DNA of 64,000 nt from an uncultured Desulfobacter sp. (GCA_963665095.1 OY762069.1:2528001-2592000); one strand, 5' to 3'; counted from the stretch's first letter, positions 2,805 to 52,559 are shown. Made by a program: numbers and translations. Notes: a model not told the origin generated them from the sequence alone.

Positions 2805-4214
2805 ATGTTTCGTGTTCTGATTATTGACGATGACCCCAACATCTGTCTGTTTTTTGAAACCGTTCTTGCAAAGATGGACTGTGACACATTTACGGCCAAC
2901 AGAATCAAGGACGCAAAGGCATTGAGCTGCCAGAATAATTTTGACATTATCCTGCTTGATCTTGAGCTGCCGGATGGAAACGGTCTGGATATCATGCCGG
3001 ATCTTGTACACCTGCCCTCTTCTCCGGAAATCATTATCATCACCGGCACAGGGGATGCCAGGGGCGCTGAGATTGCATTTAAAAACGGGGCCTGGGATTT
3101 TGTGCAAAAACCATTCCGGCTTGATGACATTACCCTGCCCATTCAAAGAGCCTTAAACTATCGCAAGGAAAAGCTGTCATCCCGGGAACTGATCATCCTG
3201 AAACGCTCAAAGATTATCGGGGAATCCCCTGCCTTAAAAAAATGTCTGGATGAAGTGGGCAAAGCCGCCTCCACCGATGCCAGCATCCTTGTCACCGGGG
3301 AAACAGGGACTGGTAAGGAGCTGTTTTCCAAAGCCATCCATGAAAACAGCAAACGGGCGTCGAACCCCTTTGTGGCGGTTGACTGCGGCTCCCTGACCGA
3401 AAGCCTGATTGAAAGCACCCTTTTCGGACATGAGAAAGGGGCCTTTACCGGGGCTGCATATAAACAGGACGGCCTGATAGTACAGGCAGACGGCGGCACA
3501 TTGATGCTGGATGAAGTCGGCGACCTGCCGCTGTCAATTCAGAAAGCCCTGTTACGGACACTACAGGAGAGATCTGTCCGCCGCATTGGGGGAAAGAAAG
3601 AGATCAAGGTGGATATCCGTCTGATTTCCGCCACCAATCTCTCCCTGGACCAGCTGGTTAAAGAGAACCGTTTCAGGGAAGATTTCCTGTACCGGATCCG
3701 GGCCATGGAAATTCACCTGCCCCCCCTTCGCGACAGGGGGAAAGATATTGAAGACATTGTGTTAAAAAAGGTGCATGAGTTGTCAAACAGGTACAACCTG
3801 ACACCCAAGGCCATCTCCAAGGAGCTGTTTGAAACACTGATGTCAAACAACTGGCCCGGCAATATCAGAGAACTGCTCAATGTCCTGGAGTATACCCTGG
3901 CGTCGGCCGGCAGTGACCCCACGCTGGTGCCCAAACATCTGCCGCCTAATTACCGGCTTTCAACATTAACGTTTGAGACGCCCGCTACCAGGGAAAACGC
4001 CCCGTCGCTGGCAGACGAAATTTTGGACGGTGATTCAGAGCTGCCAACACTGAATGCCTGCCGGGAACAGCTGGAAATAACCTACCTGACCCGTTTAATG
4101 AAAAAAGCGGGCGGGAACCGGAAAACCGCCTGCCGCTTATCAGGCGTTTCCCAGGCCAGGTTGTACGCTCTGCTAAATAAATACAATCTTCCCGGATTTG
4201 GTTCCTACCAATAA
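2805..4214 (+). CDS. NtrC-family sigma54-dependent response regulator
   Basis: N-terminal REC (LIIDDD, LLDLELP), Walker [15 protein letters not shown] loop, WPGNIREL, C-terminal Fis-type HTH. Confidence 0.96.
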
Positions 4215-4247
4215 CAGACTGTTTCATCTCTTATAAAGATCTTCAAG

Positions 4248-4288
4248 TTCTTAGAAACAAGAATGAAAATGGTTCTTGTTTTCAAGAA
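4248..4288. promoter_or_regulatory. Putative upstream activator sequence for a sigma54 activator
   Basis: Imperfect inverted repeat TTCTTAGAAACAAGAA..TTCTTGTTTTCAAGAA about 80 bp upstream of a -24/-12 box; homologous to 9139-9181. Confidence 0.6.
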
Positions 4289-4450: not shown

Positions 4451-6448
4451 ATGAAAAAAATAACATTAAGAACCAAATTAATCCTTGGTGGTGTGGTGGC
4501 TGCAATTCTTCCGCTGGTAGTCGTGGGCTCATTTGCCATAAACAAATCATCATCCGCTCTGGTTTCCATTGCCCAGGGACAGGCAGAACTTGTGGCCCGA
4601 AACTTTGCAAACATGGTGAATCTGTCCATGGAACAGGAGATCGAAAGAGCCCAGACCATGGCTTCGGAGACTTTAATCCGGGATCTGGTGGATAAAGCGT
4701 ATGCCAGTGGTGTTCAAGATCTGTCTGAAGAGGTGTCTGCAGCAGAATCCTATCTTTCAGATGTTTTTAAAAAGATGGATAAAAAATACGAGGACTTTAT
4801 TATTACAGATACCACCGGCCTGATTATCGCGGACAGTAACGGCGGCTACTCCAGACAGAAAAAAATTAACGTGGCGGAAAGAAACTATTTCCAGGCAGCC
4901 AGATCCGGCAGCACCAACATCAGTGAGCCGGTTCTGTCAAAAAAAAGCAACGAGCCTGTCTTTGTTATTGCGCTTCCCTTACAGAACCGCTCAGGTGCCT
5001 TTGCCGGTATATTGGGATCCGTTGTGAAACTGACTGCGTTGTCTGAAAAAATCACACAGGCAAAAATCGGCAAGACAGGTTATCTTTTTATGGCGGGTAA
5101 TGACGGACTATTTATCGCCCATCCGGTGCAGGATTATATTTTCAAGCTCAATATGTCCACGCTTGAAGGCATGGAAGAGATTGCCAGAAGAGCTACGGCA
5201 CAGGAAGCAGGTGTTGAAAAATACCGGTTTAAAGGTACGGATAAAATTGCCGGATTCGCACCGGTCCATGCCACAGGCTGGAGTATTGTTGTTACCCAGA
5301 ATGAATCGGAATTTTTAGCACCTGTGGTGGCCATCCGAAATATAGTACTGGCCGCGGGCGGCATTTTCCTGGTCCTGACAGTGGTGGCGGTCCTGTGGTT
5401 TGTAAAAGGCATTATGGCGCTTCTCGGAAATGACCCCTCTGAAATTGCAAAAGTGGCTGACCAGATTGCCGGCGGAGACCTCACCTATGAATTCACAGCC
5501 AATGGAAAACAGCTTTGTGGTGTATACGCCAGCATGAAGCAGATGACCGATAATCTTAAAAATATGTTTACGGACATTTCACAAGGCGTTCAGACATTGA
5601 CATCCTCTTCCACGGAACTGTCAGCCATCTCCCATCAGATGACGTCCAATGCGGAACAGTCATCCGGAAAAGCCAACAGTGTCTCATCAGCAGCCGAAGA
5701 GATGGCCACGGCCATGAACAGCGTAGCCGCCGCCACTGAACAGACCAGTGCCAACCTGCAGATGATTGTGGCGGCCGCCGAAGAGATGTCTGCCACCATC
5801 AATGAAATCTCATCCAACACTGCCAAGGGAAGCCAGACCACAAGCCAGGCCGTTGAAAAAGCGGAACAGATCTCTGCAAAAGTGGATGCGTTGGGCAGGG
5901 CGGCCACCGAGATCAGCAAGGTTACTGAAACCATTGCCGACATCTCTGAACAGACCAATCTTCTGGCGCTGAATGCCACCATAGAAGCGGCAAGAGCCGG
6001 GGAAGCAGGCAAGGGATTTGCCGTGGTCGCAGGGGAAATCAAAGAGCTTGCAAAGCAGACAGCAAACGCCACGGATGAAATCGGCCAGAAAATAGGCGAG
6101 GTACAGGCATCCACCAGCGAATCAGTGGAAGCCATCAAGGTCATAGTTGAGATCATCGACGATATCAACACCATTGTCACTTCGGTGGCAACAGCTATTG
6201 AGGAGCAGTCTGCAACAACCCAGGAAATCTCCAATAACGTCAGTCAGGCGGCCACGGGTGTTCAGGAGGTCAATGAGAATGTCAACCAGACCTCCACAGT
6301 GGCTGCGGATGTTACTGAAGATGTCCACCAGGTCAGCCGGTCTGCCGACGAAATAACCGCCGGGACCCTGCAGATCAATGAAAGTGCCACGGAATTATCC
6401 AAGCTGGCGGAAAGTCTTAATGAGATGATTGGCAGATTTAAGCTGTAA
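4451..6448 (+). CDS. Methyl-accepting chemotaxis protein (dCache), copy 1, 665 aa
   Basis: Two TM helices and [40 protein letters not shown] before the ATG at 4451. Confidence 0.97.
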
Positions 6449-6489
6449 AGATCAGACACAGGCCTGCTGTCTTAACGGCAGCAGGCCTG
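5086..6489 (+). repeat. 1,404-bp near-identical direct repeat, copy 1 (partner 9979-11382)
   Basis: Direct comparison at constant offset 4893; I saw only two synonymous differences. Includes the downstream hairpin. Confidence 0.93.
6459..6489 (+). terminator. GC-rich hairpin after the MCP (duplicated at 11352-11382)
   Basis: CAGGCCTGCTGTC-TTAAC-GGCAGCAGGCCTG; the U-tract is weak. Confidence 0.55.
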
Positions 6490-6640
6490 GTTACAAAAAT
6501 CAGGGGTAATAGAAGGATAAACTCATTTTCAAGCGTATCAATGATACCTGGCGACATCTCTGCGGAGACGAAGTTCTTTTGCTCACCTCCCAACTTATGC
6601 AAAGACACTTCCAATTGCCCAAATAGGGAAAAGCATAAAT

Positions 6641-8620
6641 ATGAACCAGATTTTTTTCGAACAAAGGGCTGCACTGATTTTAGCAATATTCTGTTGCATT
6701 GCCGTTTTGGTCATCAATATTAGCAATGCCAGGCTACCGAAGCTTTTCCATGATACTCACAGAAAAATTTTTTTAAAAATATTCGGCATAATTTTTCCGA
6801 TCTGGCTTTCATTTATCCTTGTTGTTGCGAGCATCTTTTTCATATTTGTCCCCTCTTTAAAACAAAATATGATGGTCCAAAAAAAGCAAGCTATAAAGCA
6901 GCTGGTTGACAGCCATTTATATTACCTGGGAAGTCTTCAAAACGCAGTTGCCAACGGCGATATGACACTTATTCAGGCACAGGATATGGCGATTAACCAG
7001 TTCAGGGCATTACGATATGGTCCTGAAAAGGAAGGCTATTTCTGGATTAATGACATGTATCCGTTTATGGTCATGCATCCGTATCGACCTGATCTTGAAG
7101 GGAGGGATCTGACTTCTTTCAAAGACTCACAAAACGATTATCCCTTCATTGCAATGGTCTCAAAAGTTATCCAGGACGGGGGGGGATATGTGAACTACTA
7201 CTGGCAATGGAAAAATGACCCGAACAGATCTTCTCCTAAAATATCTTATGTAAAGGGGTTTAAACCGTGGGGATGGATCCTTGGTACAGGGATTTACACT
7301 AAGGATGTTAAACAGGAAATAGATTCTATTTTCATGAAGTTATCAAAAACTTCCATTTTGATTTTAGCGTTAATTCTGGCCATATCATTTTATTTGACCA
7401 TTCAAACAATCCGTATCGAAAAAAAGAGGCTGTCATCGGCGCAGAAGTTGCGAAAAAGTGAAAGCCGGCTTGACACAATTTTGAAAGCAAACCCTGATCC
7501 CATGGTTGTTTATGATTTAAATGGCCATCCGGATTATCTTAATCCGGCATTCACCCATGTGTTCGGATGGACCCTGGAGGACTTGAAAGGAAAGACCATA
7601 CCGTTTGTCCCTCAGGATCAGAAAGATATAACCGTCAAAAAAATAACAGAAATACATCAATACGGATCGGCCCTGACCTTTGAAACAAAACGGTATACCA
7701 AAGATAAAGCCTGCCTTGATATACTTATCAGTGCGGCCTCTCACAAAGATGATAAGGGCAAAGCCATCGGTATGGTTGTTAATCTCAAAGATATTACAGA
7801 ACAAAACCGGAATCGTGAAATAATTATTCAGTCGGAAAAAATGCTGTCACTCGGTGGGCTTGCAGCAGGTATGGCCCATGAGCTCAATAACCCTTTGGCC
7901 GGCATGATACAAAGTGCCAATGTTATGAAATCCAGGCTGAAAAATGTTGATATGCCGGCGAATCTGGAAGCGGCAAAGGAACTTGGCATCTCCATGGAGG
8001 CTGTGGCAGCCTTCATGGAAAAAAGAAACATTTTTAATATGATTGATGCCATCCATTACTCAGGGATACGGGCTACTGAGATTGTCAGAAGCATGCTCAG
8101 TTTTGCAAGAAAATCAAATGTTGAGTATTCCACCCATTACCCCGATCAACTGGTGGATGCAATTCTTGAACTGGCAGCTACGGAGTACGATTTCAAAAAG
8201 CAATATGATTTTAAATCCATTGAAATTATTAAACAGTATGATGAGAATTTGCCGGTGTTGACTTGTGAAGGTGCAAAAATTCAACAGGTGTTACTCAATA
8301 TTCTGCGAAATGGTGCCCAGGCCATGCAGACGGCAAAAACAAAATCACCCAGATTTATACTCAGGCTATACAGCAAAGGACGTCCTGAAATGCTCCATAT
8401 CGAAATAGAGGACAATGGACCGGGCATGGATGAAAATACCCGTTCAAAAGTATTTGATCCTTTTTTTACGACCAAACCTGTTGGCATTGGTACGGGGTTA
8501 GGCTTGTCTGTTTCTTACTTTATCATTACTGATAATCACAACGGTACCATAGAAGTCATATCTGAGCCAGGGAAAGGCGCTAATTTTATCATCCGACTAC
8601 CCATTGACAGAAAGGACTGA
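6641..8620 (+). CDS. Cache-PAS sensor histidine kinase
   Basis: GYFWIND..MVMHP Cache motif, PAS domain, LAAGMAHELNNP, DNGPGM, FFTTKPVGIGTGLGL. Confidence 0.95.
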   Translation: MNQIFFEQRAALILAIFCCIAVLVINISNARLPKLFHDTHRKIFLKIFGIIFPIWLSFILVVASIFFIFVPSLKQNMMVQKKQAIKQLVDSHLYYLGSLQNAVANGDMTLIQAQDMAINQFRALRYGPEKEGYFWINDMYPFMVMHPYRPDLEGRDLTSFKDSQNDYPFIAMVSKVIQDGGGYVNYYWQWKNDPNRSSPKISYVKGFKPWGWILGTGIYTKDVKQEIDSIFMKLSKTSILILALILAISFYLTIQTIRIEKKRLSSAQKLRKSESRLDTILKANPDPMVVYDLNGHPDYLNPAFTHVFGWTLEDLKGKTIPFVPQDQKDITVKKITEIHQYGSALTFETKRYTKDKACLDILISAASHKDDKGKAIGMVVNLKDITEQNRNREIIIQSEKMLSLGGLAAGMAHELNNPLAGMIQSANVMKSRLKNVDMPANLEAAKELGISMEAVAAFMEKRNIFNMIDAIHYSGIRATEIVRSMLSFARKSNVEYSTHYPDQLVDAILELAATEYDFKKQYDFKSIEIIKQYDENLPVLTCEGAKIQQVLLNILRNGAQAMQTAKTKSPRFILRLYSKGRPEMLHIEIEDNGPGMDENTRSKVFDPFFTTKPVGIGTGLGLSVSYFIITDNHNGTIEVISEPGKGANFIIRLPIDRKD

Positions 8621-40624: not shown

Positions 40625-40918
40625 ATGAAAGGAGATATGATGAGACCATACATCCACCACATCCACAAACTGGAAAATGATAATCCAGGCGAACACATCG
40701 CAACCGTTAAGGGTAAGGTTCATTTCAGAAAATGGGTCAAGAGACGCTATTTCGAAAAATGTGGCTCAAGGGTTTGTTTCTGTCTGGATGCAGACAGCCC
40801 ATATTATGGTGTCATTCCGTTTGTGGCCCTGAAAGGCAAGAGCAAGGTGAAGGATCGGATTATTTTTTTTAGGATCGGGTGTGAACCGGACAATCCAGTT
40901 AACGATATCCCGTTTTGA
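40625..40918 (+). CDS. Small hypothetical protein
   Basis: AGGAG RBS suggests the real start is near 40637-40640. Confidence 0.55.
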   Translation: MKGDMMRPYIHHIHKLENDNPGEHIATVKGKVHFRKWVKRRYFEKCGSRVCFCLDADSPYYGVIPFVALKGKSKVKDRIIFFRIGCEPDNPVNDIPF

Positions 40919-41030
40919 TTAATAAAGAAAAGCTTAGGAGGTGAGAGATATGAATGATAATTGTCCGCCATTTTCAAGCTGAATAAATATTTCAAAATTT
41001 TTTTAAATTTTCGTCACAAAGCAGTTCCAA

Positions 41031-41073
41031 ATTTTGCTAAGGACATTTATATTTTGCTAAATTGATTTAGCAA
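41031..41073. promoter_or_regulatory. Putative XRE operator
   Basis: ATTTTGCTAA at 41031 and 41051; inverted repeat TTGCTAAAT-tg-ATTTAGCAA at 41054-41073. Confidence 0.6.
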
Positions 41074-41107
41074 GATTTATATATTAGTTATGAAATACGG
41101 AGTAACT

Positions 41108-41440
41108 ATGGCAAACAAAATCGGAAAATACCTTAAAGATAAACGGTTGCAGAAACGACTCACACTTCGGCAGGTAGAGGAACAGACTGAGATAAAGAAC
41201 GCATATCTTAGCCAACTTGAAAATGGTAAAATTGAGAAACCTTCGCCAAAGTATCTGCACAAGCTCGCAGGGGCTTATGGAGTTCCTTATGCCATGCTGC
41301 TTGAGATGGCAGGATATCCTTCTTTTGATGAAGAGAGCAATATTAAAAGATTTGTTTCAAATGAACTGAACACAATAACATCAGATGAAGAAGAAAAACT
41401 TATTGAATACCTTCGTTTTCTTCGGAGCACAAAAAAGTGA
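41108..41440 (+). CDS. XRE-family HTH regulator
   Basis: LTLRQVEEQTEIKNAYLSQLENG..PS; alternative start at 41090. Confidence 0.92.
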   Translation: MANKIGKYLKDKRLQKRLTLRQVEEQTEIKNAYLSQLENGKIEKPSPKYLHKLAGAYGVPYAMLLEMAGYPSFDEESNIKRFVSNELNTITSDEEEKLIEYLRFLRSTKK

Positions 41441-41447
41441 GAACATA

Positions 41448-42401
41448 ATGGACTGGTCTATTTCAAAAGCAAAGCTGTTTCAATCATGTCAGCGCAAATG
41501 GTACTTCACAAACATTGCCAGATGGAATGCCAAGAAAAAGCCTATCAAACGGGAGGCTTATCTTCTAAAAAGCCTCCAGTCTATTCAAGCTTGGAGAGGG
41601 TCTCTTGTAGATATGGTCATAGAAAAGAGGATACTTCTCCCTATATATTTCGGAAATCCAATACCTAATGAAGATTCAGTGATATCATATGCATTATCGT
41701 TAGCAGATAAGCAGCTAAATTTCGGTATAAATAAACGGCATCTCGAAAAGGGAATGACAAAAAGCAAAGCAGGAGAAGAATTCGCAGCCTTTTTTGATGT
41801 CGAGTACAATGGGGGACTTGATCCTGATAAGATTGAACATGCAAAACAGGAAATAAAGACAGCGATCCAGAATTTCTACAAATTACCTATACTTCCAGAA
41901 CTCACCGACCCTAATACAAAATTGATAATTCAACGTAGCCTAAAGTTCCCCTATAACGGATTCAATGTAACAGCCATACCCGATCTCATAATCTTTAAAG
42001 AAGGCAAGCCTCCTCATATAATCGATTGGAAAGTACACGAAGGAAGATATACAGATTACTGGCAGCAGTTGACTGTTTATGCCTATGTTCTAAACCAAGT
42101 TGCTAATCTTAAGGCGCATAAGGATTTTCCACGATCATTTGTATCTGACATTCCAGACCCTCAGACTTATTCAATTACAGAATATCAGTTGCTGAAAGGA
42201 ATCTCTAAGCCTTATACGATATCACAAGAGGATATCAATCATGTAGAAGATTTGATCCACATTACAGGCGAATGGATGCAGGAATATTCCGAAGAAATAG
42301 AGACTCTTTCTCCAAAAGATTTCCAGACCACTCTTTTCCCTGCTTCATGCGTTGCCTGTAGTTTTAAAAAGCTCTGTCAGGAGGTTGAAAACAATGAATA
42401 G
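41448..42401 (+). CDS. Cas4-like PD-(D/E)XK nuclease, Argonaute-associated, 317 aa
   Basis: IPDL..IIDWK..QLTVY nuclease motifs; one N-terminal Cys (SCQRKWY) plus CxxCxxxxxC; stop overlaps the Argonaute start by 8 bp. Confidence 0.88.
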   Translation: MDWSISKAKLFQSCQRKWYFTNIARWNAKKKPIKREAYLLKSLQSIQAWRGSLVDMVIEKRILLPIYFGNPIPNEDSVISYALSLADKQLNFGINKRHLEKGMTKSKAGEEFAAFFDVEYNGGLDPDKIEHAKQEIKTAIQNFYKLPILPELTDPNTKLIIQRSLKFPYNGFNVTAIPDLIIFKEGKPPHIIDWKVHEGRYTDYWQQLTVYAYVLNQVANLKAHKDFPRSFVSDIPDPQTYSITEYQLLKGISKPYTISQEDINHVEDLIHITGEWMQEYSEEIETLSPKDFQTTLFPASCVACSFKKLCQEVENNE

Positions 42402-42827
42402 GAATGAGATCAATGCATTTGAGATTACCAATCTGAAAGAATTATCATGTGACTATGATTTGTACTCGGTGAAAGGTCTATCACGTGACCCGGATAACCC
42501 TTCTGAATATGAAAAAAGGTTTAATAAGCTTATAACCTCAATGTCGTTTAAGACATGGTCGCCATGCGTTCGTCTAGTAAAAGACGGTGTCCACTATATC
42601 GCCCAACCAACAGGTTCTAAAGAGTTGCCGAAAAAATGGGGAGTCATTGGTGGAAGCAATGTAATAATTGAGAAGCTTCCTGAAAGCTTTCACCTTGATT
42701 TTGATAATCTTGATTCAGACACTATCCATCTTGCGATTAGATTCCTGCAAGCCCAGATAATCAGGACACTTGCAACCCATCCAGAACTCTGGCAGCCAAG
42801 CTCTGCTGGTGGCGCAGTATACCTAAG
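42394..42827 (+). pseudogene. ago: Long prokaryotic Argonaute, 5' fragment (144 codons) before the IS
   Basis: GGAGG RBS, ATG at 42394; joins 46376 in frame when the IS and one CTAAG copy are removed. Confidence 0.88.
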
Positions 42828-42966
42828 GTGAGAATGATCACAAAAAATCATGGAAAAATTAAAGATAATTTGCAAGATATGCCAGGGATGAGGCAGAAGC
42901 TCCCCCGTTTATCTCGCAAATAATCAATGGAACTTCTGCCCCTATTACCCTAACAGGGCAGGAGAT

Positions 42967-43542
42967 ATGCTATCAGAACTTATTAAAAACAAAAATCTTT
43001 TTTTCCATCTTTACGAAATCGATAAAAATACAGCAAAACAGTACAGACAGTTGCCTTGTCCGCATTGTGGAGGCCCCTTATATTTCAGCAATTACATGCG
43101 CAAGCCCCGGGGAGAGCCTGAGGGCGTGCCGGAGGAATTCTTTATTCAGTTCAGCCTATGTTGTGGAACCGAAGGGTGTCGCAAAAGATTGATGCCGCCG
43201 TCCTGCCGTTTTCTGGGGAGAAAAGTCTACTGGTTTGCAGTTATTCTGTGTGTTTTAACAGACTGGCAAAATACCAATGAAAAAATCACCGTTTATGATT
43301 TGTCCATACGAACTGGCATTAGCCGGAACACAATAAACCGCTGGCTTGCCTTTTTTCAGGATACATTTCCAGTGAGCCGAACCTGGCGAAGGCTTCGGGG
43401 GCAGATATCCGCTGGTGTCAGTAACAGCCGTCTGCCGTCAAGTTTCATCAATTATTGCCGGGCGGTGAAATCCAACGCCGAAAACGCACTTGTATCAAGC
43501 CTGATAATCTTATCAGGCGGGTCCAAAATCAGGGCCGGATAA
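42967..43542 (+). CDS. IS accessory protein with a Cys cluster and HTH
   Basis: CPHCGG, CCGTEGCRKR, GISRNTINRW. Confidence 0.8.
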   Translation: MLSELIKNKNLFFHLYEIDKNTAKQYRQLPCPHCGGPLYFSNYMRKPRGEPEGVPEEFFIQFSLCCGTEGCRKRLMPPSCRFLGRKVYWFAVILCVLTDWQNTNEKITVYDLSIRTGISRNTINRWLAFFQDTFPVSRTWRRLRGQISAGVSNSRLPSSFINYCRAVKSNAENALVSSLIILSGGSKIRAG

Positions 43543-43648
43543 TCTCGCGCAGAGGATGAACATAGACAAATATATGCAGGCTGTTTTACCACCTGATTTC
43601 AGACGTTGATCCGAAATTTTAACCTGAAATTAAAAAGGAGCCTGATTT

Positions 43649-45094
43649 ATGAGTGGTAAAACACAGCACCCGGCAGACCTGTGGGCATTATTTCGCTTTT
43701 CGGTTATCGGCGGTTTACTGGCACGCCCTCCGGCAAAGGGAGAGTTGCAAAATGAACTGACCCGGCTCGCAGGTCAAATCTATTCTCATCCTGTGACGAA
43801 CAAACCGACCTGTTTTCATTTTTCCACAATTGAGGCCTGGTATTACAGGGCAAAAAATTGCCAGGACCCAATTCTGGCTCTGGGCCGTAAAGTTCGTTCA
43901 GATATGGGCAAATCCACAGCATTGAATGCTGAATTGATCCGCCTTCTTGGTGTCCAGTACAACACTTATCCGCAATGGAGCTATCAGCTTCATTGCGACA
44001 ACCTGGCAGCTGAAATCGCTGAACAGGGCCTGTGTGAGAATCCGCCGTCCTATGCAAGTGTGAGAAGGCGTATGGTTGAACGGGGTTGGAGAAAAAAGGC
44101 TTCCAAGAACAAAAATCAAACATCCGGACAGAAATCAGCTTTTAAGCGATTAGAAACGTATGAAGTCCGTAGTTATGAAACCGAAAACATCCATGAATTA
44201 TGGCATCTGGACTTTCACGAATGCAGCAGGCGCGTGGTGGACGAAAAAGGTCAGTGGCATACGCCCAAGGCATTGTGCATTCTTGATGATCGCTCCCGTC
44301 TGTGTTGTCATATTCAATGGTATTTGAATGAAACGGCAGAGGTTTTGATCCACGGCTTGTCCCAGGCGTTTTACAAAAGAGGGCTTCCCAGAGCCTTGAT
44401 GACAGATAATGGTTCTGCCATGATTGCTCATGAAACCGGCAACGGACTTAAACGATTGGGCGTCAGTCATGAGACCACGTTGCCATACTCGCCCTATCAA
44501 AATGGGAAGCAGGAAGCCTTTTGGGGTACACTTGAAGGCCGTTTGATCGCCATGCTGAGCCGGATGGATTCTTTGACCCTGGTATATTTAAATCAGGTCT
44601 CCCAGGCCTGGATCGAGATGGAATACAACAAGTCAACCCATGATGAAATTCATATGTCGCCATTGCAATGCGCCCTTGACGGCAAGGATGTGTCACGTCC
44701 TGCACCGGAACCTGAACAGCTTCAATTTTCGTTTACAGCCTGTGAATCCAGAAAACAGCGTCTGTCCGATGGTACCATCTCTTTGATGGGCATCCGGTTT
44801 GAAATCCCTTCACGGTTTAATCATATCCAGCGTCTTCATGTCTGTTTTTGCTCCTGGGATAAATCGGTTGCCTGGCTGATAGATAAACGAACCGGAAATA
44901 AGCTTGCCGCAATTTATCCCCAGGACAAGACAAAGAATGCTTCAGCAATCCGTCGTATCAAATCCACTCCGGATGAAATTAACCCTGGCCATGAAACCCT
45001 GTCCGGATCAGAACCGGCCCTGCTTAAAAAGCTCTTGTCCGATTATGCAGCAACCGGAATGCCTTGTGCCTACTTGCCAATGGAGGAAAAGTGA
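43649..45094 (+). CDS. DDE (rve) transposase, Mu/IS21-like
   Basis: LWHLDF, ILDDRSR, TDNGS, QNGKQE, DGTISL. Confidence 0.94.
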   Translation: MSGKTQHPADLWALFRFSVIGGLLARPPAKGELQNELTRLAGQIYSHPVTNKPTCFHFSTIEAWYYRAKNCQDPILALGRKVRSDMGKSTALNAELIRLLGVQYNTYPQWSYQLHCDNLAAEIAEQGLCENPPSYASVRRRMVERGWRKKASKNKNQTSGQKSAFKRLETYEVRSYETENIHELWHLDFHECSRRVVDEKGQWHTPKALCILDDRSRLCCHIQWYLNETAEVLIHGLSQAFYKRGLPRALMTDNGSAMIAHETGNGLKRLGVSHETTLPYSPYQNGKQEAFWGTLEGRLIAMLSRMDSLTLVYLNQVSQAWIEMEYNKSTHDEIHMSPLQCALDGKDVSRPAPEPEQLQFSFTACESRKQRLSDGTISLMGIRFEIPSRFNHIQRLHVCFCSWDKSVAWLIDKRTGNKLAAIYPQDKTKNASAIRRIKSTPDEINPGHETLSGSEPALLKKLLSDYAATGMPCAYLPMEEK

Positions 45095-45918
45095 TGAACA
45101 GCAAACGATTATTGGCTTATTATGGATTGAAGTACAATCCTTTTTTACCAAATATTCCTGTGGACTCATTATGGCATCCACCCCGGATGGAGGCATTTAT
45201 TACACGCCTTGAAAATATGACCATGAACGGTGGATTTGCATTAATCGCCGGTGAACCCGGTCTTGGCAAATCCAAGACACTACAGGCGATTGCCCATCAG
45301 CTTGGCAAGCTTGATGAAGTCGTTGTCGGCGTTATGGAGCGCCCCCAAAGCAGCGTGGCCGATTTCTATCGGGAAATGGGGACACTGTTTGGTGTCAATT
45401 TGAGTCCGGCCAACCGTTACGGAGGGTTCAAAGATCTGCGGCAACGATGGAAAAATCATATTAAAACAACCCTGTTCAGACCCGTCCTGCTCATTGATGA
45501 GGCTCAGGAAATGCTTACCGGATGCCTGAATGAGCTTCGGTTGCTCAACAGTATGGATTTTGACTCCCAGAATTTATTGACCACCATTATCTGTGGTGAT
45601 ACCCGGCTGCCGGAACGGTTCAGAACCAGTGCATTGGTAGCCCTGGGGAGTCGACTCCGGTTCCGGTTAAAATTGGATCCTTATACCCGGGAAGAATTGT
45701 TGGATTATATAGCGCATTGCCTAAATCAGGCCGGAGCTCCTCAACTCATGACAAAACCTTTAATCACCGCTTTGGTAGAGCACTGTACAGGAAACTTACG
45801 GGTCCTCAATAATATGTCGGCAGAACTGCTTGAAGTGGGCGTTCAAAGAGAGCTGCCGCAACTGGATGAGAAACTTTTCATAGAGCTTTTTTCACTGAAA
45901 CCGTCGCCAACCAGATAA
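45094..45918 (+). CDS. ExeA-type AAA+ transposition ATPase
   Basis: YGLKYNPF, GEPGLGKS, LLIDEAQ, GNLR; coupled to the transposase stop. Confidence 0.92.
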   Translation: MNSKRLLAYYGLKYNPFLPNIPVDSLWHPPRMEAFITRLENMTMNGGFALIAGEPGLGKSKTLQAIAHQLGKLDEVVVGVMERPQSSVADFYREMGTLFGVNLSPANRYGGFKDLRQRWKNHIKTTLFRPVLLIDEAQEMLTGCLNELRLLNSMDFDSQNLLTTIICGDTRLPERFRTSALVALGSRLRFRLKLDPYTREELLDYIAHCLNQAGAPQLMTKPLITALVEHCTGNLRVLNNMSAELLEVGVQRELPQLDEKLFIELFSLKPSPTR

Positions 45919-45929
45919 GAGGTATAAAA

Positions 45930-46172
45930 ATGACAATCAATGAAACACAACTTGAAAAAACAATGGCTGAAATTGTCGACGAGCTGGGCAATCTGGTCAT
46001 GGAGTTGATCCTTGTCAGTTTAAAAAAAATAAACTCGGAAAATCATCTTTTGACAGAATTGCTGGAGATCAAACAAGAGGAACAAAGAGAAAATGAATTT
46101 TATGGTTTTGGTGAAACGGAGCCGGGACATCCTGGGGAGGAAACCCGGCAAGGGATAGCCAAAAGCAGGTAG
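45930..46172 (+). CDS. Small acidic IS-borne protein
   Basis: 80-aa ORF with GAGG RBS inside the element. Confidence 0.55.
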   Translation: MTINETQLEKTMAEIVDELGNLVMELILVSLKKINSENHLLTELLEIKQEEQRENEFYGFGETEPGHPGEETRQGIAKSR

Positions 46173-46370
46173 CATTGAATAATGCGCCGGGGGAAGCGGG
46201 GTTGACCTGCTTCCCCTTTCTGTATTATTCAAGCTTTCCTGCTCATGCCTTAAAAAACCCAATAAAATCAGTCGGAGCGCAGCGACATCTGCTAATCATT
46301 GAAAATACAGTTATGCCTTTCCCTGATTTATCCTGATTGTCGCTCCATTGATTATCGTGCTTCCTCTCAC

Positions 46371-48296
46371 CTAAGAACGCCGGATAGTGAATTCCGAAAA
46401 TATTCTCGTGATATCGACCTGTTCAGGGGGTTCAGCCTAAGAGTGGCACAATTGCCTTATTACAGCATCGGGATAGTTGTCGACCAAAGCTCAAAATATG
46501 TGAAAAGATTCCCTCTTCCGTCCAAAATAAACCATAATGATTTCAGGAAGCTGAAAGGGAAATCAGCTGTTTATGAGTATGGAAAGCATCTTTATGAAAT
46601 CAAACTGCATGAATTGAGTGACCTAAATGTAAGCGAGACTGATATAAATGGCGTAAGCTTGTATGATGATATCATATCAAAATACAAAGATGTTCCTAAA
46701 TCATCACTAGTTGCAGATCTGAAACCGGAATGTGCAGTCTTGGTATATAGGAATAACCGTGATGAGGCAAGAAACATGCCCTCTGCGATGTGCCGATTAT
46801 CTGTGGACACACGAGAAGTCAAAGATGCTCACATATATTCAATCATGCCGCCATATAAAAAACGCCTTGATATAAACGCTATCGTCAATAGATTCTTTCG
46901 TGGATTAAGCTTCAATTCAGTGAAACTACAGATATCCAGAGATATGCATGTCCCGATATTCCAAGAACTGCCTTTCCCTGTCCTGCAATTCGGCAATAAC
47001 AGAACCCTCGACATAAACCATCTTGCCAGAAGAAAAGACTTCGGAAAACAGAAAGAGACGCTGCTGCTATCACCTGAAGCTGGATTCTATGAAAGGAAAC
47101 CGCTTGGCCAGCAATACCTATTATTACCGAAATCGGTCTATGAGACATGGGGAGACAAATTCATTTCAGACCTGTGTGGCACATTCAATCATATCTATAA
47201 AGAGCAGTATTCACCCAAAATCATTCCATATGATGATTCAAAGAAATCGGTGCCACATCTTTCAAAAAGCATACTTAATGCAATAAATGCGAATGGTGCG
47301 ACATCAGGATACTGCCTGGTAATGATACATAGATTCAAAAAGTCTAATTTGAACAAAGAAGATTATCTGGCTAATACTGTAATAAGAAAATTGGCTGAGA
47401 TGAAGCTTAATGCATCAGTGATACACACATCGGTTTCAGAGGATAGCATCCTTCAAAAGACCGATAATAACGGCAACCGAACTTGGGATGTCATTCATAA
47501 GATGAGAGGCAGGTACAAAGGGTATCTCAAGAATGTTGTAATGAATAAGATTCTCCTATTGAATGATATCCGGCCATTTACCCTGAAAGAAAGATTGAAT
47601 TCTGATGTGGTTATAGGTATCGACAGGAAAAGCAACCATGCTGGGTTTGTTTTCGTAACATCTCACGGCGAAAGCATATATTTTACACCACATAAGACCA
47701 AAAGAAATGAGAAGCTACGTCCTGGACTGATCAAGACAGCCATCTCATCATACCTTAAGGATATATATGCCATTGTTGCATCAAATTTACCAAAGAATAT
47801 CCTCATACATCGAGATGGGGCATTATTTGATGAAGAGATTGCTGCAATAAAGCAGACCATTGATGATCTAAAGATCGAGAATGTAGTGCATAAGGATTGC
47901 CAATGTACATTCGTAGAGATAAGGAAAACCCATATGTTGCCTCTCCGTATCTTTAATGTAAGTCCAAACGACGGATCAAATTCAGAGTACGTTTCAAATC
48001 CAAATATCGGCACTACATTCCTTAATGATAATGACGCCTTTATGACTACAACTGGTAAACCATACCATCTCAATGGCACAAGCAATCCGCTTCTGGTTTC
48101 ATACAAAGGCGGTGGATTATCATTCCAGGATGCCCTTAGCGATACTTTCGCTCTGACGCATCTGACATGGACAAAAATTGATTACTGCTCACGTATTCCC
48201 ATCACAATAAGATTTGGTGATATAGGGCTTCGGGATGTTGCCGGGGAATATGATGAGGATGACATTGAATACGGAATTGAAGAGGGAGGTGCATAA
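46371..48296 (+). pseudogene. ago: Long prokaryotic Argonaute, 3' part (probably L1-PAZ-L2, then MID-PIWI)
   Basis: PIWI motifs VIGID, NEK, LIHRDG, VEIRK, GTSNPL, LTHLTW, RIPITIRFGD. Confidence 0.92.
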
Positions 48297-48297
48297 A

Positions 48298-48702
48298 ATG
48301 AGTGACATAGGACTATCAGGAGCACAGTTTGAAATAAACCAAGAAATATTAAGGGCGTTCGATGATGCTGTGGGTAAAATCCAAACACATACTGTATCAA
48401 ACAAGAAATTGATATCAGATGCGTTGTTGAAAATAATGGAACCTATTGCAGAATCTATGCAATTTAAGACAAATACTGTAACCGTGATTGATGAATACAG
48501 TATAATGGAATTCTTAAAGAATAAGGCTGTGTCAAGAGAGGGGAGCAACTGGAATCAATACATCAATGCTTTCCAAAGTATGATAGCACGGATGAAGACA
48601 GACGATATGAATTTCGGCAGTGAAGATATTGAAATCCTGAATGATATTGGTGATGCACTGAATGAAGAATGCAATCGTCATTATCGTAAACTGCGTGGTT
48701 GA
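48298..48702 (+). CDS. Hypothetical helical protein, 134 aa, in the Argonaute operon
   Basis: GGAGG RBS; starts 1 bp after the ago stop. Confidence 0.8.
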   Translation: MSDIGLSGAQFEINQEILRAFDDAVGKIQTHTVSNKKLISDALLKIMEPIAESMQFKTNTVTVIDEYSIMEFLKNKAVSREGSNWNQYINAFQSMIARMKTDDMNFGSEDIEILNDIGDALNEECNRHYRKLRG

Positions 48703-48703
48703 T

Positions 48704-49852
48704 ATGAAAGGATACCTTCAGAAACTGATCCAAGAACTGGAAAGACGGGGAGAAAGGCTCAAGGCGTTAATCAGATGCCCAATCGAAATAACAGAGCTGA
48801 ACTCGCTTGCTGTAAAATGCGAGGAGAAAATAGATGTAAGCATAAAGCAGCTTCAAGAGATAGAGACATATCTGAATCTCCCGGATTGTGATGAGCAGAC
48901 AATCAGATTTATCTATCGGCGATATCATGATGAATATAGAAATATCGATCTTATTGAGCGTTATGGCATCAGCTTACTTAAAGTAGATTGCCCGGACCTG
49001 AAATATCACAACAGACTCATTGCACAAATACAGAAGGAATCAAATATCCCATTGACAATTGCATCAGTCGCAAGCTTCTCTACAGATTCCTTTTTCTATG
49101 CACCAAAGACACATGTCATTTTTGTTCCAGCTGCTGAGCATCTTTTTCTTCAGCTCATCCCTATACTATATCACGAGCTTGGGCATTATGTAAGCGGCCA
49201 TGTTAATCATCTGCGTCTTTCAAAGCTGAAAGAAAAAGTAGCTAATTGTCGTATTAGCATAAATCGACATTATTCTGATATACTGAAGCGTGAACTACTC
49301 GAAACACATTCAAAAGAACATCTGAAAATCACATTTGCCATAATGAACAAGTGGAAAGGTTCATGGTTTGAGGAAATTTTCTGTGATGCCTTTGCGACTT
49401 TTTTGGTCGGACCTGCTTATGCATGGTCATGGGTACATATTGTAACCAAGATGAATGACGATGTATTCTATTTCAATGAGAAAGTATATCTTGAACATCC
49501 ATCTCATGAGGCAAGGTTTAGATTCATCATTCGCTGCTTAACAATATCTGGATTTGAAAAAGAAGTTGAAGATCTAAAGAAAGTATGGAACTCCTTGATC
49601 TTCGTTTCAGGAAAGACAGGAAGTCCAGACTATTTCGTCGCATTCCCAGATAAATTATTTGAAGAGATTTCAAACCTGATAAAGACTGGTCTTGAGGAAA
49701 ATAATTTCGAGCTTGCTTCTCCCAAGAAATTTGAAACCACCAATGGAATCTCAAAATCATTAAATGAAGTATGGAAATATTTCTGGAATTCTCCGGATGA
49801 TTTCCTTCAGTTTGAAGAGAAAATTATAAAAGAAATTCTGGATAAATCTTAA
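48704..49852 (+). CDS. HExxH gluzincin-like metallopeptidase with N-terminal coiled coil, 382 aa
   Basis: YHELGH, EIFCD..GPAY, HPS..R. Confidence 0.75.
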   Translation: MKGYLQKLIQELERRGERLKALIRCPIEITELNSLAVKCEEKIDVSIKQLQEIETYLNLPDCDEQTIRFIYRRYHDEYRNIDLIERYGISLLKVDCPDLKYHNRLIAQIQKESNIPLTIASVASFSTDSFFYAPKTHVIFVPAAEHLFLQLIPILYHELGHYVSGHVNHLRLSKLKEKVANCRISINRHYSDILKRELLETHSKEHLKITFAIMNKWKGSWFEEIFCDAFATFLVGPAYAWSWVHIVTKMNDDVFYFNEKVYLEHPSHEARFRFIIRCLTISGFEKEVEDLKKVWNSLIFVSGKTGSPDYFVAFPDKLFEEISNLIKTGLEENNFELASPKKFETTNGISKSLNEVWKYFWNSPDDFLQFEEKIIKEILDKS

Positions 49853-49861
49853 TGTGATAAA

Positions 49862-50716
49862 ATGGAAACCGCAAAAATCTCAGCGCCAATGATGGGCAAA
49901 AAACTTTACCAAAAGCGTGCCCAATCTGCATTCCCTATTCTTGTCCGACAGGCAGAAGCCGGGAGCCCAATTTTTTATTCTGATCTCGCCGATGAGCTTG
50001 AAATGCCCAATCCTCGGAATCTGAATTATGTTTTGGGCAGTATCGGCCAGACCATGAAAAATTTGTCAAAAAAATGGAAAGTTGAGATACCTCCAATACA
50101 ATGCTTAGTCATCAATAAAAATACTGGCCTGCCTGGTGAGGGCATTGGCTGGTTTTTAACCTCAAAAGATGATTTCCATAAACTATCAAGGGAGCAGAAA
50201 AGGCGTATTGTGGAGGCTGAACTTCAGAAAATATTTTCATTTCCAAGGTGGAACGAGGTTCTTGAAGTTTTGAACTTAACACCTGTCAAATCCGACTATT
50301 CAATAAAATTATCCAGGACATCAAACCTTGGTGGTGGCGGTGGAGAGAGCGACCAGCATAAAAGACTCAAACAATTTATCTCAGAGCATCCTGCTCTTTT
50401 TAATCTCCCCTCCAAATTACAGGGAAACATTGAATACCCTTTGCCCTCAGGGGATGTTGTTGACGTATTTTTTGAAAATTCTGGCGAGTATTTATGCATA
50501 GAAGCAAAATCAGCCATCTCACAAGAGACTGACATTATCCGTGGAATTTTTCAATGCATCAAATATAGAGCTGTAATCAATGCAGTTTTAGTTTCCAAAG
50601 GATTACCTCAAAATGGCCGAGCGATTTTAGCATTAGAGGGGCCTTTCCCCAAAAGTCTCCTGCCGTTGAAAAACATGTTGTCTGTGGAAGTCATAGACAA
50701 TATTAAGCCGCTTTAA
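49862..50716 (+). CDS. Putative nuclease: HTH/ATL-like domain plus PD-(D/E)XK-type domain
   Basis: YSDLA..VLGSI..PPIQCLVINKNTGLPG; EY..VDV..IEAKS..QCIKY. Confidence 0.7.
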   Translation: METAKISAPMMGKKLYQKRAQSAFPILVRQAEAGSPIFYSDLADELEMPNPRNLNYVLGSIGQTMKNLSKKWKVEIPPIQCLVINKNTGLPGEGIGWFLTSKDDFHKLSREQKRRIVEAELQKIFSFPRWNEVLEVLNLTPVKSDYSIKLSRTSNLGGGGGESDQHKRLKQFISEHPALFNLPSKLQGNIEYPLPSGDVVDVFFENSGEYLCIEAKSAISQETDIIRGIFQCIKYRAVINAVLVSKGLPQNGRAILALEGPFPKSLLPLKNMLSVEVIDNIKPL

Positions 50717-52559
50717 AGTAATCTGTCGACCATAGCTGCTCACATATACGTTGGACTAGTTCCTGTCTTTCTTCAAGATCTGCCTTTTTGAATTCAGGAT
50801 GTGCCTTGAAATCCAACTCATTGATTTTTGAGGATTTAAGAAAATTTGGGTTCTTTTCATAATAATCAGGATGCAGTGTTTTTGCGTATGTATTCTCTTT
50901 CAGATAGTGTTTAAGCTTATCTTTGTATTTATCGCTACTGAATGATTGATTCGTCCCATTTGGCAAAAGGATCAATGCACCTATCGAATTCCGCCAGTCC
51001 TGGAAATCACTCTCTTGCTCAAACTCATCTTTGAAATATTCAAATTTATCTGCCCAGATATGCTCAATCTCAAACTGTTTGCCTTTGGGATGCTGATAAC
51101 TCACATAATTGTTTGTCTTTCCTACGAGACTATCAAGATAACTTGAAATCCTTGATAACAGGTGTTTGACAAATTTCCTATTTTGTCCATGAAGGCCGAA
51201 ATCCTGAATACCATCCCATTTGTGTTCTATCTCGTCAATAGCTTCAGTGAGATTCTTACCTAATGTCTCTAAATCGTTGTTTCTTATCCGTTTAATGAGG
51301 TTGAACATTGTGTATTTGATAGTTGTCTGTCCGAATTTTTTGTAGTTGACAGCCCTTCTGACTGTAAATGTCTCGATAAATCTTGCCACAAAATCAAGCT
51401 TCTTTTCAACAGTCTCTTCATCATCTTCAAACTTGATCGATGATAAAAGAAATGGATCTTGCAAGGAATCCGCTATACCCCAATTATAGATGTAGTGCAG
51501 ATGTGGGATCTGATCATCCATATTGTTCCATGAGTTACATGTCCTGATGTACCATTTTACGAAGAAAGGAAATTGATTCTTGAAGAATCCATAGAAATCA
51601 TTTGAATTTTTTAGGCCGAAAAGCTTTCTGTGGTTATCCTTGAACCAATTATGGAACCTCGAACCTATAAGTTCAAAATCTTTATTCTCAGATCCAGCCT
51701 GGCCAGGCCTTATACTGACTGCATATTTTCCCCTGAACCATGCTTGGAAAAAGGCTTGGTCAGCAGTTTCATCATACTCATGCAGCTTTTGTATCTGGGT
51801 CTTCCATATATCGTTAATTTCGTTCCGCTTGTCTGGATCAGTTATCTTCGAAAGGACAAAGCCTTTCAGCATCTCAGAGGGGGTCAGATTAAGTCCTCTG
51901 TCATTCATGGTCTCGAATATTACATATGCATTCTCATCCGAATAAGCCATTATCTCGACTAATACGACATTTTCAATGAACCAATCGACGAAATATGGAA
52001 GAGCTTCATTTGTTAGGTCCTCTGGAAATGAATGATCGATATCAGCGTACCGTTCAACCATGTTTCGGACTGTCTCATCGTCATTATCTTTGACGTCATA
52101 TTTTCCTTCTTCAAATAGTGCCTTGAGACAGGGTTCACGCTGATCATCTGTCATGTTGAATGATTTTTCTCCATATTTCTCAGAGAATATCAGCTTACTG
52201 ATAGAGACCTTATCGTCCCTTTTAGCTTGCAGGTGGTTTAGGTATATAAGAAGCAGAGTGATTGATGTTATCCTCTGCTGGCCGTCAATAATAGATTTCT
52301 TGCCATTTGTCGAATTTACGCTGAAGACGACAGGGCCAAGATAATAGCTTTGGTACTTAGCGACATCTGAACGTCGGTCTTCGGGTTTATAAGATTTCAA
52401 GAAAGTAGATGTCAGGTCCTCGACAAGCAGTTTGATGTGCTTTTCCTGCCAACGGAATTCCCTCTGGAAATAATCAATAAAGAATTTCTGGTCTTTCAGC
52501 AATGAACTGATGCTCTTGTTTATGGCCTCAATCTTGTTAGCCAATGGGTTCGTTGTCAT
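50703..52559 (-). CDS. gmrSD: Fused GmrSD-family type IV restriction endonuclease (DUF262-DUF1524)
   Basis: FQREFRW, IIDGQQRITS, FETMNDRG, IEHIW..GALILL..N. Confidence 0.9.
   Translation of the reverse strand: MTTNPLANKIEAINKSISSLLKDQKFFIDYFQREFRWQEKHIKLLVEDLTSTFLKSYKPEDRRSDVAKYQSYYLGPVVFSVNSTNGKKSIIDGQQRITSITLLLIYLNHLQAKRDDKVSISKLIFSEKYGEKSFNMTDDQREPCLKALFEEGKYDVKDNDDETVRNMVERYADIDHSFPEDLTNEALPYFVDWFIENVVLVEIMAYSDENAYVIFETMNDRGLNLTPSEMLKGFVLSKITDPDKRNEINDIWKTQIQKLHEYDETADQAFFQAWFRGKYAVSIRPGQAGSENKDFELIGSRFHNWFKDNHRKLFGLKNSNDFYGFFKNQFPFFVKWYIRTCNSWNNMDDQIPHLHYIYNWGIADSLQDPFLLSSIKFEDDEETVEKKLDFVARFIETFTVRRAVNYKKFGQTTIKYTMFNLIKRIRNNDLETLGKNLTEAIDEIEHKWDGIQDFGLHGQNRKFVKHLLSRISSYLDSLVGKTNNYVSYQHPKGKQFEIEHIWADKFEYFKDEFEQESDFQDWRNSIGALILLPNGTNQSFSSDKYKDKLKHYLKENTYAKTLHPDYYEKNPNFLKSSKINELDFKAHPEFKKADLEERQELVQRICEQLWSTDYFKAA

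Follow-up and report, generated by a model that had tools for sequence, protein, structure and literature searches.

The closest described relatives of the Argonaute discussed here form the group of PliAgo, a long prokaryotic Argonaute (pAgo) known from a series of structures (PDB 7r8f-7r8k; Lisitskaya et al. 2022, Nat Commun 13:4624, PMC9360449). In the parts of that paper devoted to the group, the motif RHSY is described as replacing (Y/H/R)KQK in the MID pocket, with the H and Y absolutely conserved, and members of the group are reported to cut RNA with DNA guides in vitro, with a cleavage register shifted by one nucleotide; a PD-(D/E)XK nuclease gene precedes the pAgo gene, and a helix-turn-helix (HTH) regulator is also found in the group (PMC9360449). 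Another long pAgo, that of the BPAN system, is described as a catalytically inactive long-B pAgo that uses RNA guides to sense DNA and releases a collateral DNase (Song et al. 2023, PMC10620215). Disruption of a pAgo gene by a mobile element is on record in Thermus thermophilus HB27EC, which carries ago::ISTth7 and shows higher transformability (PMC6352166; strain table in PMC5365140). The transposon Tn6049 of Cupriavidus metallidurans CH34 is described as a 3.5-kb element present in 12 copies, of which pMOL28 and pMOL30 carry one each, all with a gspA-like ATPase gene; it often lies in genomic islands and is known to insert into genes (pbrU) (PMC2864759). The locus reported here lies in a 64,000-nt stretch of DNA from an uncultured Desulfobacter sp. 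(GCA_963665095.1 OY762069.1:2528001-2592000; 'the window' below, one strand, with positions counted from its first letter). In it, a 3,541-bp Tn6049-type transposon sits in codon 145 of the gene for a PliAgo-group Argonaute. We regard the insertion as likely recent and predict that it leaves no Argonaute protein and probably also shuts off expression of the two downstream genes, a reading that we hold with high confidence.

Both junctions of the insertion were read directly in the sequence. On the left, between 42827 and 42828, ...GCA GTA TAC CTAAG gives way to GTGAGAATGATC (the longer left flank being GCAGTATACCTAAG); on the right, between 46370 and 46371, ...CTTCCTCTCAC meets CTAAGAACGCCG. 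An earlier note on this DNA, made from the sequence alone, had placed the junctions at the same letters and had claimed a 784-aa frame across the insertion, free of stops and frameshifts in either half. A scripted join reproduced that frame: the 3,548 bases at 42828-46375 split the pAgo coding sequence at codon 145, and splicing 42394-42827 to 46376-48296 restores a single frame of 784 codons and a stop, with 0 internal stops and a joint that reads ..AVYLRTPDSEF... The note had also described a clean transposon insertion, with CTAAG at both junctions. This stands for the insertion itself and for the 5-bp CTAAG present on both sides, but the limits given for the insert had to be revised: G42828 and C46370 are not common to the other genomic copies, so that the shared element runs from 42829 to 46369 and the window copy is bordered by CTAAG plus one extra base per side.

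In its interrupted state, the 5' piece terminates with ...AVYLR followed by a TGA supplied by the first bases of the transposon. A mechanical list of open reading frames (ORFs) contains 42352-42831 and 46299-48296, the latter starting 24 codons within the transposon, and the public gene call for the same gene (P0001, 617 aa) takes as its start the GTG at 46443, which is 3' of the right junction. The false N-terminus derived from the insertion sequence (IS), which the note expected annotation to report, is thus a property of the mechanical ORF but not of the public call, whose start is internal to the gene.

Taken together, the two pieces constitute one full-length pAgo, collinear with its relatives. 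The 3' piece scores 35.3 bits against Pfam Piwi (cut-off 28.9), and the two pieces fall in order along the 782 positions of the PADLOC pAgo_II profile (Table 1). When the 3' piece was used as the query against a large protein collection, 16 proteins were returned, namely P0001, 14 full-length proteins (778-805 aa) and one 632-aa form; its closest full-length relatives were P0002 (780 aa, 77% identity) and P0003 (788 aa, 70%). In an alignment with 12 full-length relatives, the 5' piece occupies the first 154 columns and the 640-aa 3' piece starts at an overlapping Leu column; the joint region reads ..GVFLRTPDSEF.. in P0002 and ..AIFLRTPDSEF.. in P0003. Identity to P0002 amounts to 123/144 for the 5' piece and 489/636 for the 3' piece. 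Because both pieces align collinearly with the relatives and with the profile, their fit goes beyond chance, and the earlier identification of an Argonaute that includes the 144-aa fragment is confirmed. Each piece is found once in the genome by tblastn, with no second copy of this pAgo.

Among solved structures, the best match is PliAgo (7r8f, E 3e-90, chain residues 146-780). Residues of the window protein were read from the 7r8f alignment against the numbering of PMC9360449, counted from chain residue 451 and cross-checked on A479 and C483. The catalytic tetrad of PliAgo (D563, E592, D626 and D762) corresponds to D, E, D and D in the window protein, within IGIDRK, KRNEKL, IHRDG and RFGDI, respectively. 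The group-specific motif of the MID pocket (PliAgo R467, H498, S501 and Y530) is likewise R, H, S and Y, and the Lys two residues past the first catalytic Asp (PliAgo K565, in IGIDVK) is Lys in the window (IGIDRK), a position at which the PnyAgo group is described as having His (PMC9360449). Because the tetrad, the RHSY pocket, K565 and the upstream nuclease and HTH genes all match, we file the window gene with the PliAgo group as a long pAgo, and we predict that its intact product would be a DNA-guided cutter of RNA. An inactive long-B pAgo of the BPAN type was also considered and set aside, as the DEDD tetrad is intact.

With 42828-46370 as the query, the genome yields 13 full-length copies of the element, 12 with 0 mismatches or gaps and one at 96.67% identity (examples in genome G000 are C1:328973-332515, 1462586-1466128 and 3464860-3468402). 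Beyond these, the genome has a single fragment of 350 bp, and element positions 3268-3464 by themselves are matched at 14 places with 80% identity. That stretch (46095-46291 in the window) belongs to no Rfam family and seems to be a module common to other transposons. The four element genes run in the same direction as pAgo, and their order (small protein, rve transposase, AAA ATPase, small ORF) is that of the element on pMOL28 (NC_007972.2). Identity to the pMOL28 element is 38% for gene 1 (E 8e-27, to a 181-aa 'transposase'), 48.6% for the transposase (E 2e-147) and 50% for the ATPase (E 9e-94); no similarity was found by BLAST between element gene 4 (80 aa) and the 71-aa ORF in the same pMOL28 position. 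The 48.6% identity of the transposase to genes on C. metallidurans plasmids extends over 95% of its length. Searches of solved structures returned only retroviral-integrase-type cores for the transposase (E ~1e-4) and nothing for the ATPase. Assignment to the IS481 family, the PGAP label of the Tn6049 transposase, was rejected: the window transposase scores 89.9 bits against the NCBIfam IS481 model, below its cut-off of 224, and the element has four genes in 3.5 kb, whereas the IS481 family consists of single-gene elements of about 1 kb.

The direct repeats that flank the 13 copies vary in length, with 3-bp repeats at three copies, 4-bp at two, 5-bp at two (the window copy included), 6-bp at five and 7-bp at one. 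A DDE transposase would not usually give such a spread, from 3 to 7 bp, at copies that are otherwise identical, and a fixed 5-bp target duplication is typical of Tn7/Mu/Tn5053-like transposons that pair a transposase with an AAA+ ATPase. An attempt to fit every one of the 13 copies to a fixed 5-bp duplication, allowing offsets of 0-2 bases, fails for several of them. No hybrid copies, in which left and right flanks would pair across copies as a sign of recombination, were found among the 13.

The other 12 copies are distributed over diverse sites: a PAS-domain gene, two rve/Mu-C transposase genes, an IS200-type transposase gene, an ORF6N gene, a methyltransferase gene, an RHS-repeat gene (which holds the diverged copy), an E1-E2 gene of a cyclic-oligonucleotide-based antiphage signalling system (CBASS), a position between clustered regularly interspaced short palindromic repeats (CRISPR), and three short or non-coding stretches. 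The copy in the CBASS locus (L078, G000:C1:6067728-6077270) is identical and lies antisense in the E1-E2 gene (Cap2-like, cap2) of a type II operon, at its 3' end, with the cyclase and E1-E2 genes on one side of it and the genes for JAB and the endonuclease effector on the other. The copy in the CRISPR array (L076, G000:C1:3461860-3471402) is also identical, and a 32-nt repeat starting GTTTCAATCCACGCCCC continues on both sides of it with a period of ~66. Defence loci therefore account for 3/13 copies: pAgo, the CRISPR array and CBASS cap2. Mobile elements nested within one another are seen at L068, L070 and L071 (G000:C1 ~947470, 1462586 and 1972372), where copies sit in two rve + Mu-transposase-C genes and one IS200 gene. 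Against a genome mean of 0.487, the GC content around the insertion sites is 0.449 at +/-500 bp (P 0.0026) and 0.444 at +/-2 kb (P 5e-5; both by resampling), and within +/-50 bp it is no different from the genome (P 0.24).

The age of the insertion can be approached from both the element and the gene. The interrupted pAgo retains 137 of the 139 columns at which 10 intact relatives are invariant, the two changes being V to I and D to E; when each intact relative was left out in turn, it broke between 1 and 9 invariant columns. Since 12 copies are identical over 3,541 bp, pAgo is without decay and the nuclease matches its PADLOC profile end to end, a recent burst of transposition is suggested and the insertion is likely recent. 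The earlier note's word 'recent' is in this way supported, albeit indirectly. Our proposal for the sequence of events is as follows. A recent burst would have inserted the element into codon 145 of pAgo. Translation of the 5' piece would stop at the TGA of the element, which would leave at most a 145-aa stub plus an N-terminally truncated product, and the insertion would be polar on the genes for the small protein and the HExxH protein. The copies that survive would be those sitting where loss is tolerated, in low-GC accessory DNA that includes a CRISPR array, a type II CBASS operon and other mobile elements. Insertion sequences commonly land in dispensable genes. In a set of 60 related genomes (24 of the same genus), none has a pAgo matching the window query, and for this reason we regard the pAgo as accessory DNA. 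Selection for Argonaute loss is not required to explain the insertion: all 13 insertions, this one included, lie in accessory DNA of low GC, and several of them are in mobile elements. The earlier note's suggestion that autoimmune cost perhaps favoured the knock-out is therefore not supported, as a burst of transposition whose insertions survive wherever loss is tolerated accounts for it without such selection.

Could the arrangement instead have arisen in the assembly, with the 13-copy repeat mis-joined here and the true gene intact? Long multicopy repeats do mislead assemblers. Four runs contained the unique flank, none of them listed as RNA and three of them from one sample that is possibly the source of the assembly, and the read evidence is that of this one sample. 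In its three runs, one contig of 10,894 nt, which includes the nuclease gene and the 5' piece, ends at 42855, and another, of 14-17 kb, begins at 46342 and extends beyond 49000, so that contigs fit both junctions of the earlier note, passing from unique sequence into the element at either side with a reach of 28 and 29 letters; the element itself lies on separate short-read contigs, at a depth ~11-13x that of the flanks. Nowhere in the contigs of these runs does a joint or loose end link 42827 to 46376, as an empty site would give. The fourth run (X4, from a second sample) holds scattered pieces of the locus, with zero cover at 42335-42601, and a metagenome scan with P0002 returned one 1,248-nt contig that covers residues 515-780 only, with the insertion site outside. 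Moreover, the insertion has its own 5-bp duplication and a frame-closing TGA from the element, neither of which a mis-join would create, and we give an artefact next to no weight. If the insertion is genuine, the 3' piece might nevertheless function, as an Argonaute of ~617 aa without the N domain (from GTG 46443 or further upstream) that is transcribed out of the element and, together with the downstream genes, keeps some guide-dependent activity. The 3' piece comprises the MID and PIWI domains with every catalytic and pocket residue, the element genes are co-directional with pAgo, and there is the public gene call for the 617-aa form. However, a GC-rich hairpin of 12 pairs leads into a T-rich run in the tail of the element (Table 1), the search for an outward promoter found sigma-70-like sites only at the level of shuffled sequence (27 against 25.2 +/- 4.7), and the N part is kept in all 47 relatives where it is detectable. 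A working 3' piece is therefore very improbable in our view.

A different kind of alternative accepts the knock-out and holds that it was selected, either because the Argonaute imposed a cost (self-targeting of transcripts of the multicopy transposon or of other resident elements being one example) or because it blocked useful incoming DNA, with the CRISPR and CBASS hits being part of the same disarmament. Precedent comes from Thermus thermophilus HB27, whose ago::ISTth7 allele is said to have been reported originally by Swarts et al. in 2014. There, the knock-out of ago by an insertion sequence raises transformability (PMC6352166, PMC5365140). The presence of pAgo, a CRISPR array and CBASS cap2 among the 13 targets would fit such selection, as would a homologous operon (L058, below) that holds two different insertion sequences in its nuclease and pAgo genes. 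Yet the remaining ten copies are in non-defence targets, three transposase genes among them, the low-GC accessory surroundings of all sites can be explained by survival bias alone, and the CRISPR array was split by the insertion rather than removed; as 12 copies are identical, the order of events cannot be read from them. We judge adaptive loss to be unlikely. It can also be imagined that immune systems of three separate kinds (the RNA-targeting Argonaute operon, the CRISPR array and the type II CBASS operon) were all struck in a single recent burst and that the hits were kept by selection: an Argonaute with guides from multicopy DNA would cut transposon transcripts as copies rose, and the survivors would be the lineages in which the element had disabled it. 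This scenario appears quite improbable to us.

Several observations weigh against our preferred reading of a recent, tolerated insertion into a PliAgo-group gene. The reach of the contigs into the element falls under the 31-letter bridging rule, as is expected of a k=31 graph at a 13-copy repeat, and agreement among the contigs amounts to consistency rather than independent proof; contigs drop rare variants, and a minority of cells with an empty site may exist. Gene conversion, rather than youth, could partly explain the identity of the copies. An empty site was found in no sister genome, and what the gene looked like before the insertion is known only from protein sequences, those of relatives with 70-85% identity. 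RNA cutting, the loss of function and the polar effect are predictions drawn from sequence. The occurrence of 3/13 copies in defence loci is suggestive and could exceed survival bias, the null for which would need a genome-wide defence census. Finally, the Lys called conserved in D-R pAgos (PliAgo K759, in TIKLCD) is Arg in the window protein (TIRFGD), a conservative change.

Table 1. Positions of the pAgo operon genes, of the transposon that splits pAgo and of the transposon's own genes in the window.
Feature	Position	Strand	Basis or remark
XRE-type HTH regulator, operon gene 1	41090..41440	+	Pfam HTH_3 E 6.9e-11; PADLOC HTH_VI, capH
Cas4-like PD-(D/E)XK nuclease, operon gene 2	41385..42401	+	Pfam PDDEXK_1 E 1e-13; PADLOC Aga_Cas4-like_Nuc E 9.9e-86
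pAgo gene, 5' piece	42394..42827	+	144 codons + 2 bases; PADLOC pAgo_II E 2.5e-27, profile 3-137
Left target-duplication copy CTAAG, 5 bp	42823..42827		Junction reading and comparison of copies
Tn6049-type transposon core, TGAGA...TCTCA, 3,541 bp	42829..46369	+	Comparison of 13 genomic copies
Element gene 1, 191-aa Cys-rich protein (CPHC, CCGTEGC), weak HTH	42967..43542	+	Pfam HTH_26 E 0.0012, below cut-off
Element gene 2, 481-aa DDE (rve) transposase	43649..45094	+	Pfam rve E 4.1e-10
Element gene 3, 284-aa AAA+ ATPase (AAA_22, GspA/ExeA-like)	45064..45918	+	Pfam AAA_22 E 2.4e-19
Element gene 4, 80-aa ORF	45930..46172	+	No Pfam or NCBIfam match
Element non-coding tail, with 12-pair hairpin at 46189-46217	46173..46369	+	Terminator-like by consensus match only; T-rich run after GC-rich hairpin
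Right target-duplication copy CTAAG, 5 bp	46371..46375		Junction reading and comparison of copies
pAgo gene, 3' piece (MID + PIWI; DEDD and RHSY intact)	46376..48296	+	1 base + 639 codons + stop; Pfam Piwi; PADLOC pAgo_II E 7.2e-171, profile 145-775
Small protein of ~134 aa, operon gene 4	48298..48702	+	ATG 48298 with GGAGG-type site upstream; mechanical ORF from 48235
HExxH protein of 396 aa, operon gene 5	48662..49852	+	Likelier start 48704; HE..H motif

The interrupted pAgo is the third of five tightly packed genes, in the order XRE regulator, Cas4-like nuclease, pAgo, small protein and HExxH protein, with a GC content of 39-41%. The nuclease ORF is open from 41385, and its likelier start is the ATG at 41448, right after the HTH stop; the protein covers 1-307 of the 308 positions of the PADLOC Aga_Cas4-like_Nuc profile, and the end of its gene overlaps the pAgo start by 8 nt. 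We surveyed 55 related loci from many phyla, archaea included, which were found via full-length pAgo sequences only and searched by tblastn with the window proteins. Matches to the HTH regulator were present in 49/55, to the nuclease in 47/55 and to the HExxH protein in 53/55, and the order was the same in all 42 of the 42 loci that have the HTH, nuclease, pAgo and HExxH genes. The misses were mostly contig ends or five nuclease-less loci of Dehalococcoidia. In the latter (L045, L046, L047, L048 and L050), the HTH gene stands directly before pAgo with no detectable Cas4-like nuclease, and the small and HExxH proteins are kept.

Insertion of IS elements into this type of pAgo operon recurs in one of the 55 loci: in L058, from Latescibacterota, a DDE_Tnp_1 element lies in the nuclease gene (2876-4276) and a Mutator/IS256-type element in the pAgo gene (6293-7610). 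At three further loci (L033, L064 and L065), pAgo is spread over several frames without inserts; at least one of these comes from a nanopore-only assembly, and the frame breaks may be sequencing errors rather than signs of pseudogenes.

The two genes downstream of pAgo are also widely kept. An ORF of 116-166 aa lies between pAgo and the HExxH gene in 50/51 loci, and a profile built from the window small protein reaches all 50 in three passes. The HE..H motif occurs in 49/49 HExxH-protein ORFs examined, with H171, E172 and H175 invariant in 35 sequences. No Pfam, NCBIfam or PADLOC family was found for the HExxH protein. Its AlphaFold model, which is confident (predicted local distance difference test score, pLDDT, 93.5; predicted template modelling score, pTM, 0.92), had no match at E <= 0.001 in the PDB by Foldseek, the best being ZMPSTE24 at E 0.15. 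A wider structure search gave a list dominated by the N-terminal helical bundle, with BepA/YfgC at Z 8.3 (root-mean-square deviation 4.2 over 144 residues), and atlas hints to Peptidase_U49/M48 score only 0.78-0.79. On the basis of the invariant HExxH motif and these weak M48-type matches, we predict that it is a zinc metallopeptidase. The passages of PMC9360449 on the PliAgo-group operon mention neither the small protein nor the HExxH protein, and our literature search found no publication naming both 'PliAgo' and 'metalloprotease'.

Beyond the HExxH gene, the next ORF (284 aa, 49862-50716) belongs to no family and is present in 0/55 related loci. A GmrSD-type restriction gene (GmrSD_N + GmrSD_C, 50703-52559, - strand) adjoins the operon in the same low-GC stretch, and together they suggest a defence island. 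No Rfam family reached its gathering score in 40800-50900.

The locus is probably a natural case in which an active Tn6049-type transposon knocked out a PliAgo-group Argonaute operon in recent times. Our literature search found no in-vivo role for an RNA-targeting (PliAgo-group) Argonaute operon, and pairing this strain with one that has the intact operon would suit tests of what the system defends against and what it costs. It is worth noting an annotation pitfall as well: the public 617-aa 'protein' is the tail of a 784-aa gene, and such entries will confound surveys that set short Argonautes against long ones. More broadly, the same active element in pAgo, a CRISPR array and a CBASS operon makes a concrete case for asking whether the erosion of immunity by transposon bursts is a matter of chance or of selection.

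In comparison with known systems, the operon resembles the described PliAgo-group operons in its long pAgo of ~780 aa with DEDD, RHSY and K565 and in the Cas4-like nuclease and HTH genes upstream, and it differs from them, as far as the relevant passages of PMC9360449 go, in the splitting of pAgo by a transposon, in the Arg at K759 and in the additional small and HExxH proteins. With BPAN, as described in PMC10620215, it shares a long pAgo beside a nuclease of the PD-(D/E)XK superfamily (bAgaN), and PADLOC files both as a class II pAgo with a Cas4-like nuclease. In contrast to BPAN, the window pAgo has the full DEDD tetrad and a PliAgo-type pocket, and because these are kept the BPAN mechanism should not be assumed for it. 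The element is like Tn6049 in its size of ~3.5 kb, its many copies (12 there, 13 here), its gene order and three related proteins, whereas identity is only ~50% and the fourth ORF is dissimilar; the comparison covered genes and size. As to the event itself, Thermus ago::ISTth7 offers the same situation of an active insertion sequence that inactivates a pAgo gene, although a different insertion sequence is involved and the pAgo described there is a DNA-targeting long-A protein with a measured phenotype (PMC6352166, PMC5365140), unlike the window pAgo of the RNA-targeting group. This type of event is thus already known, and the present case is notable mainly for the same transposon in two other immune loci of the genome.

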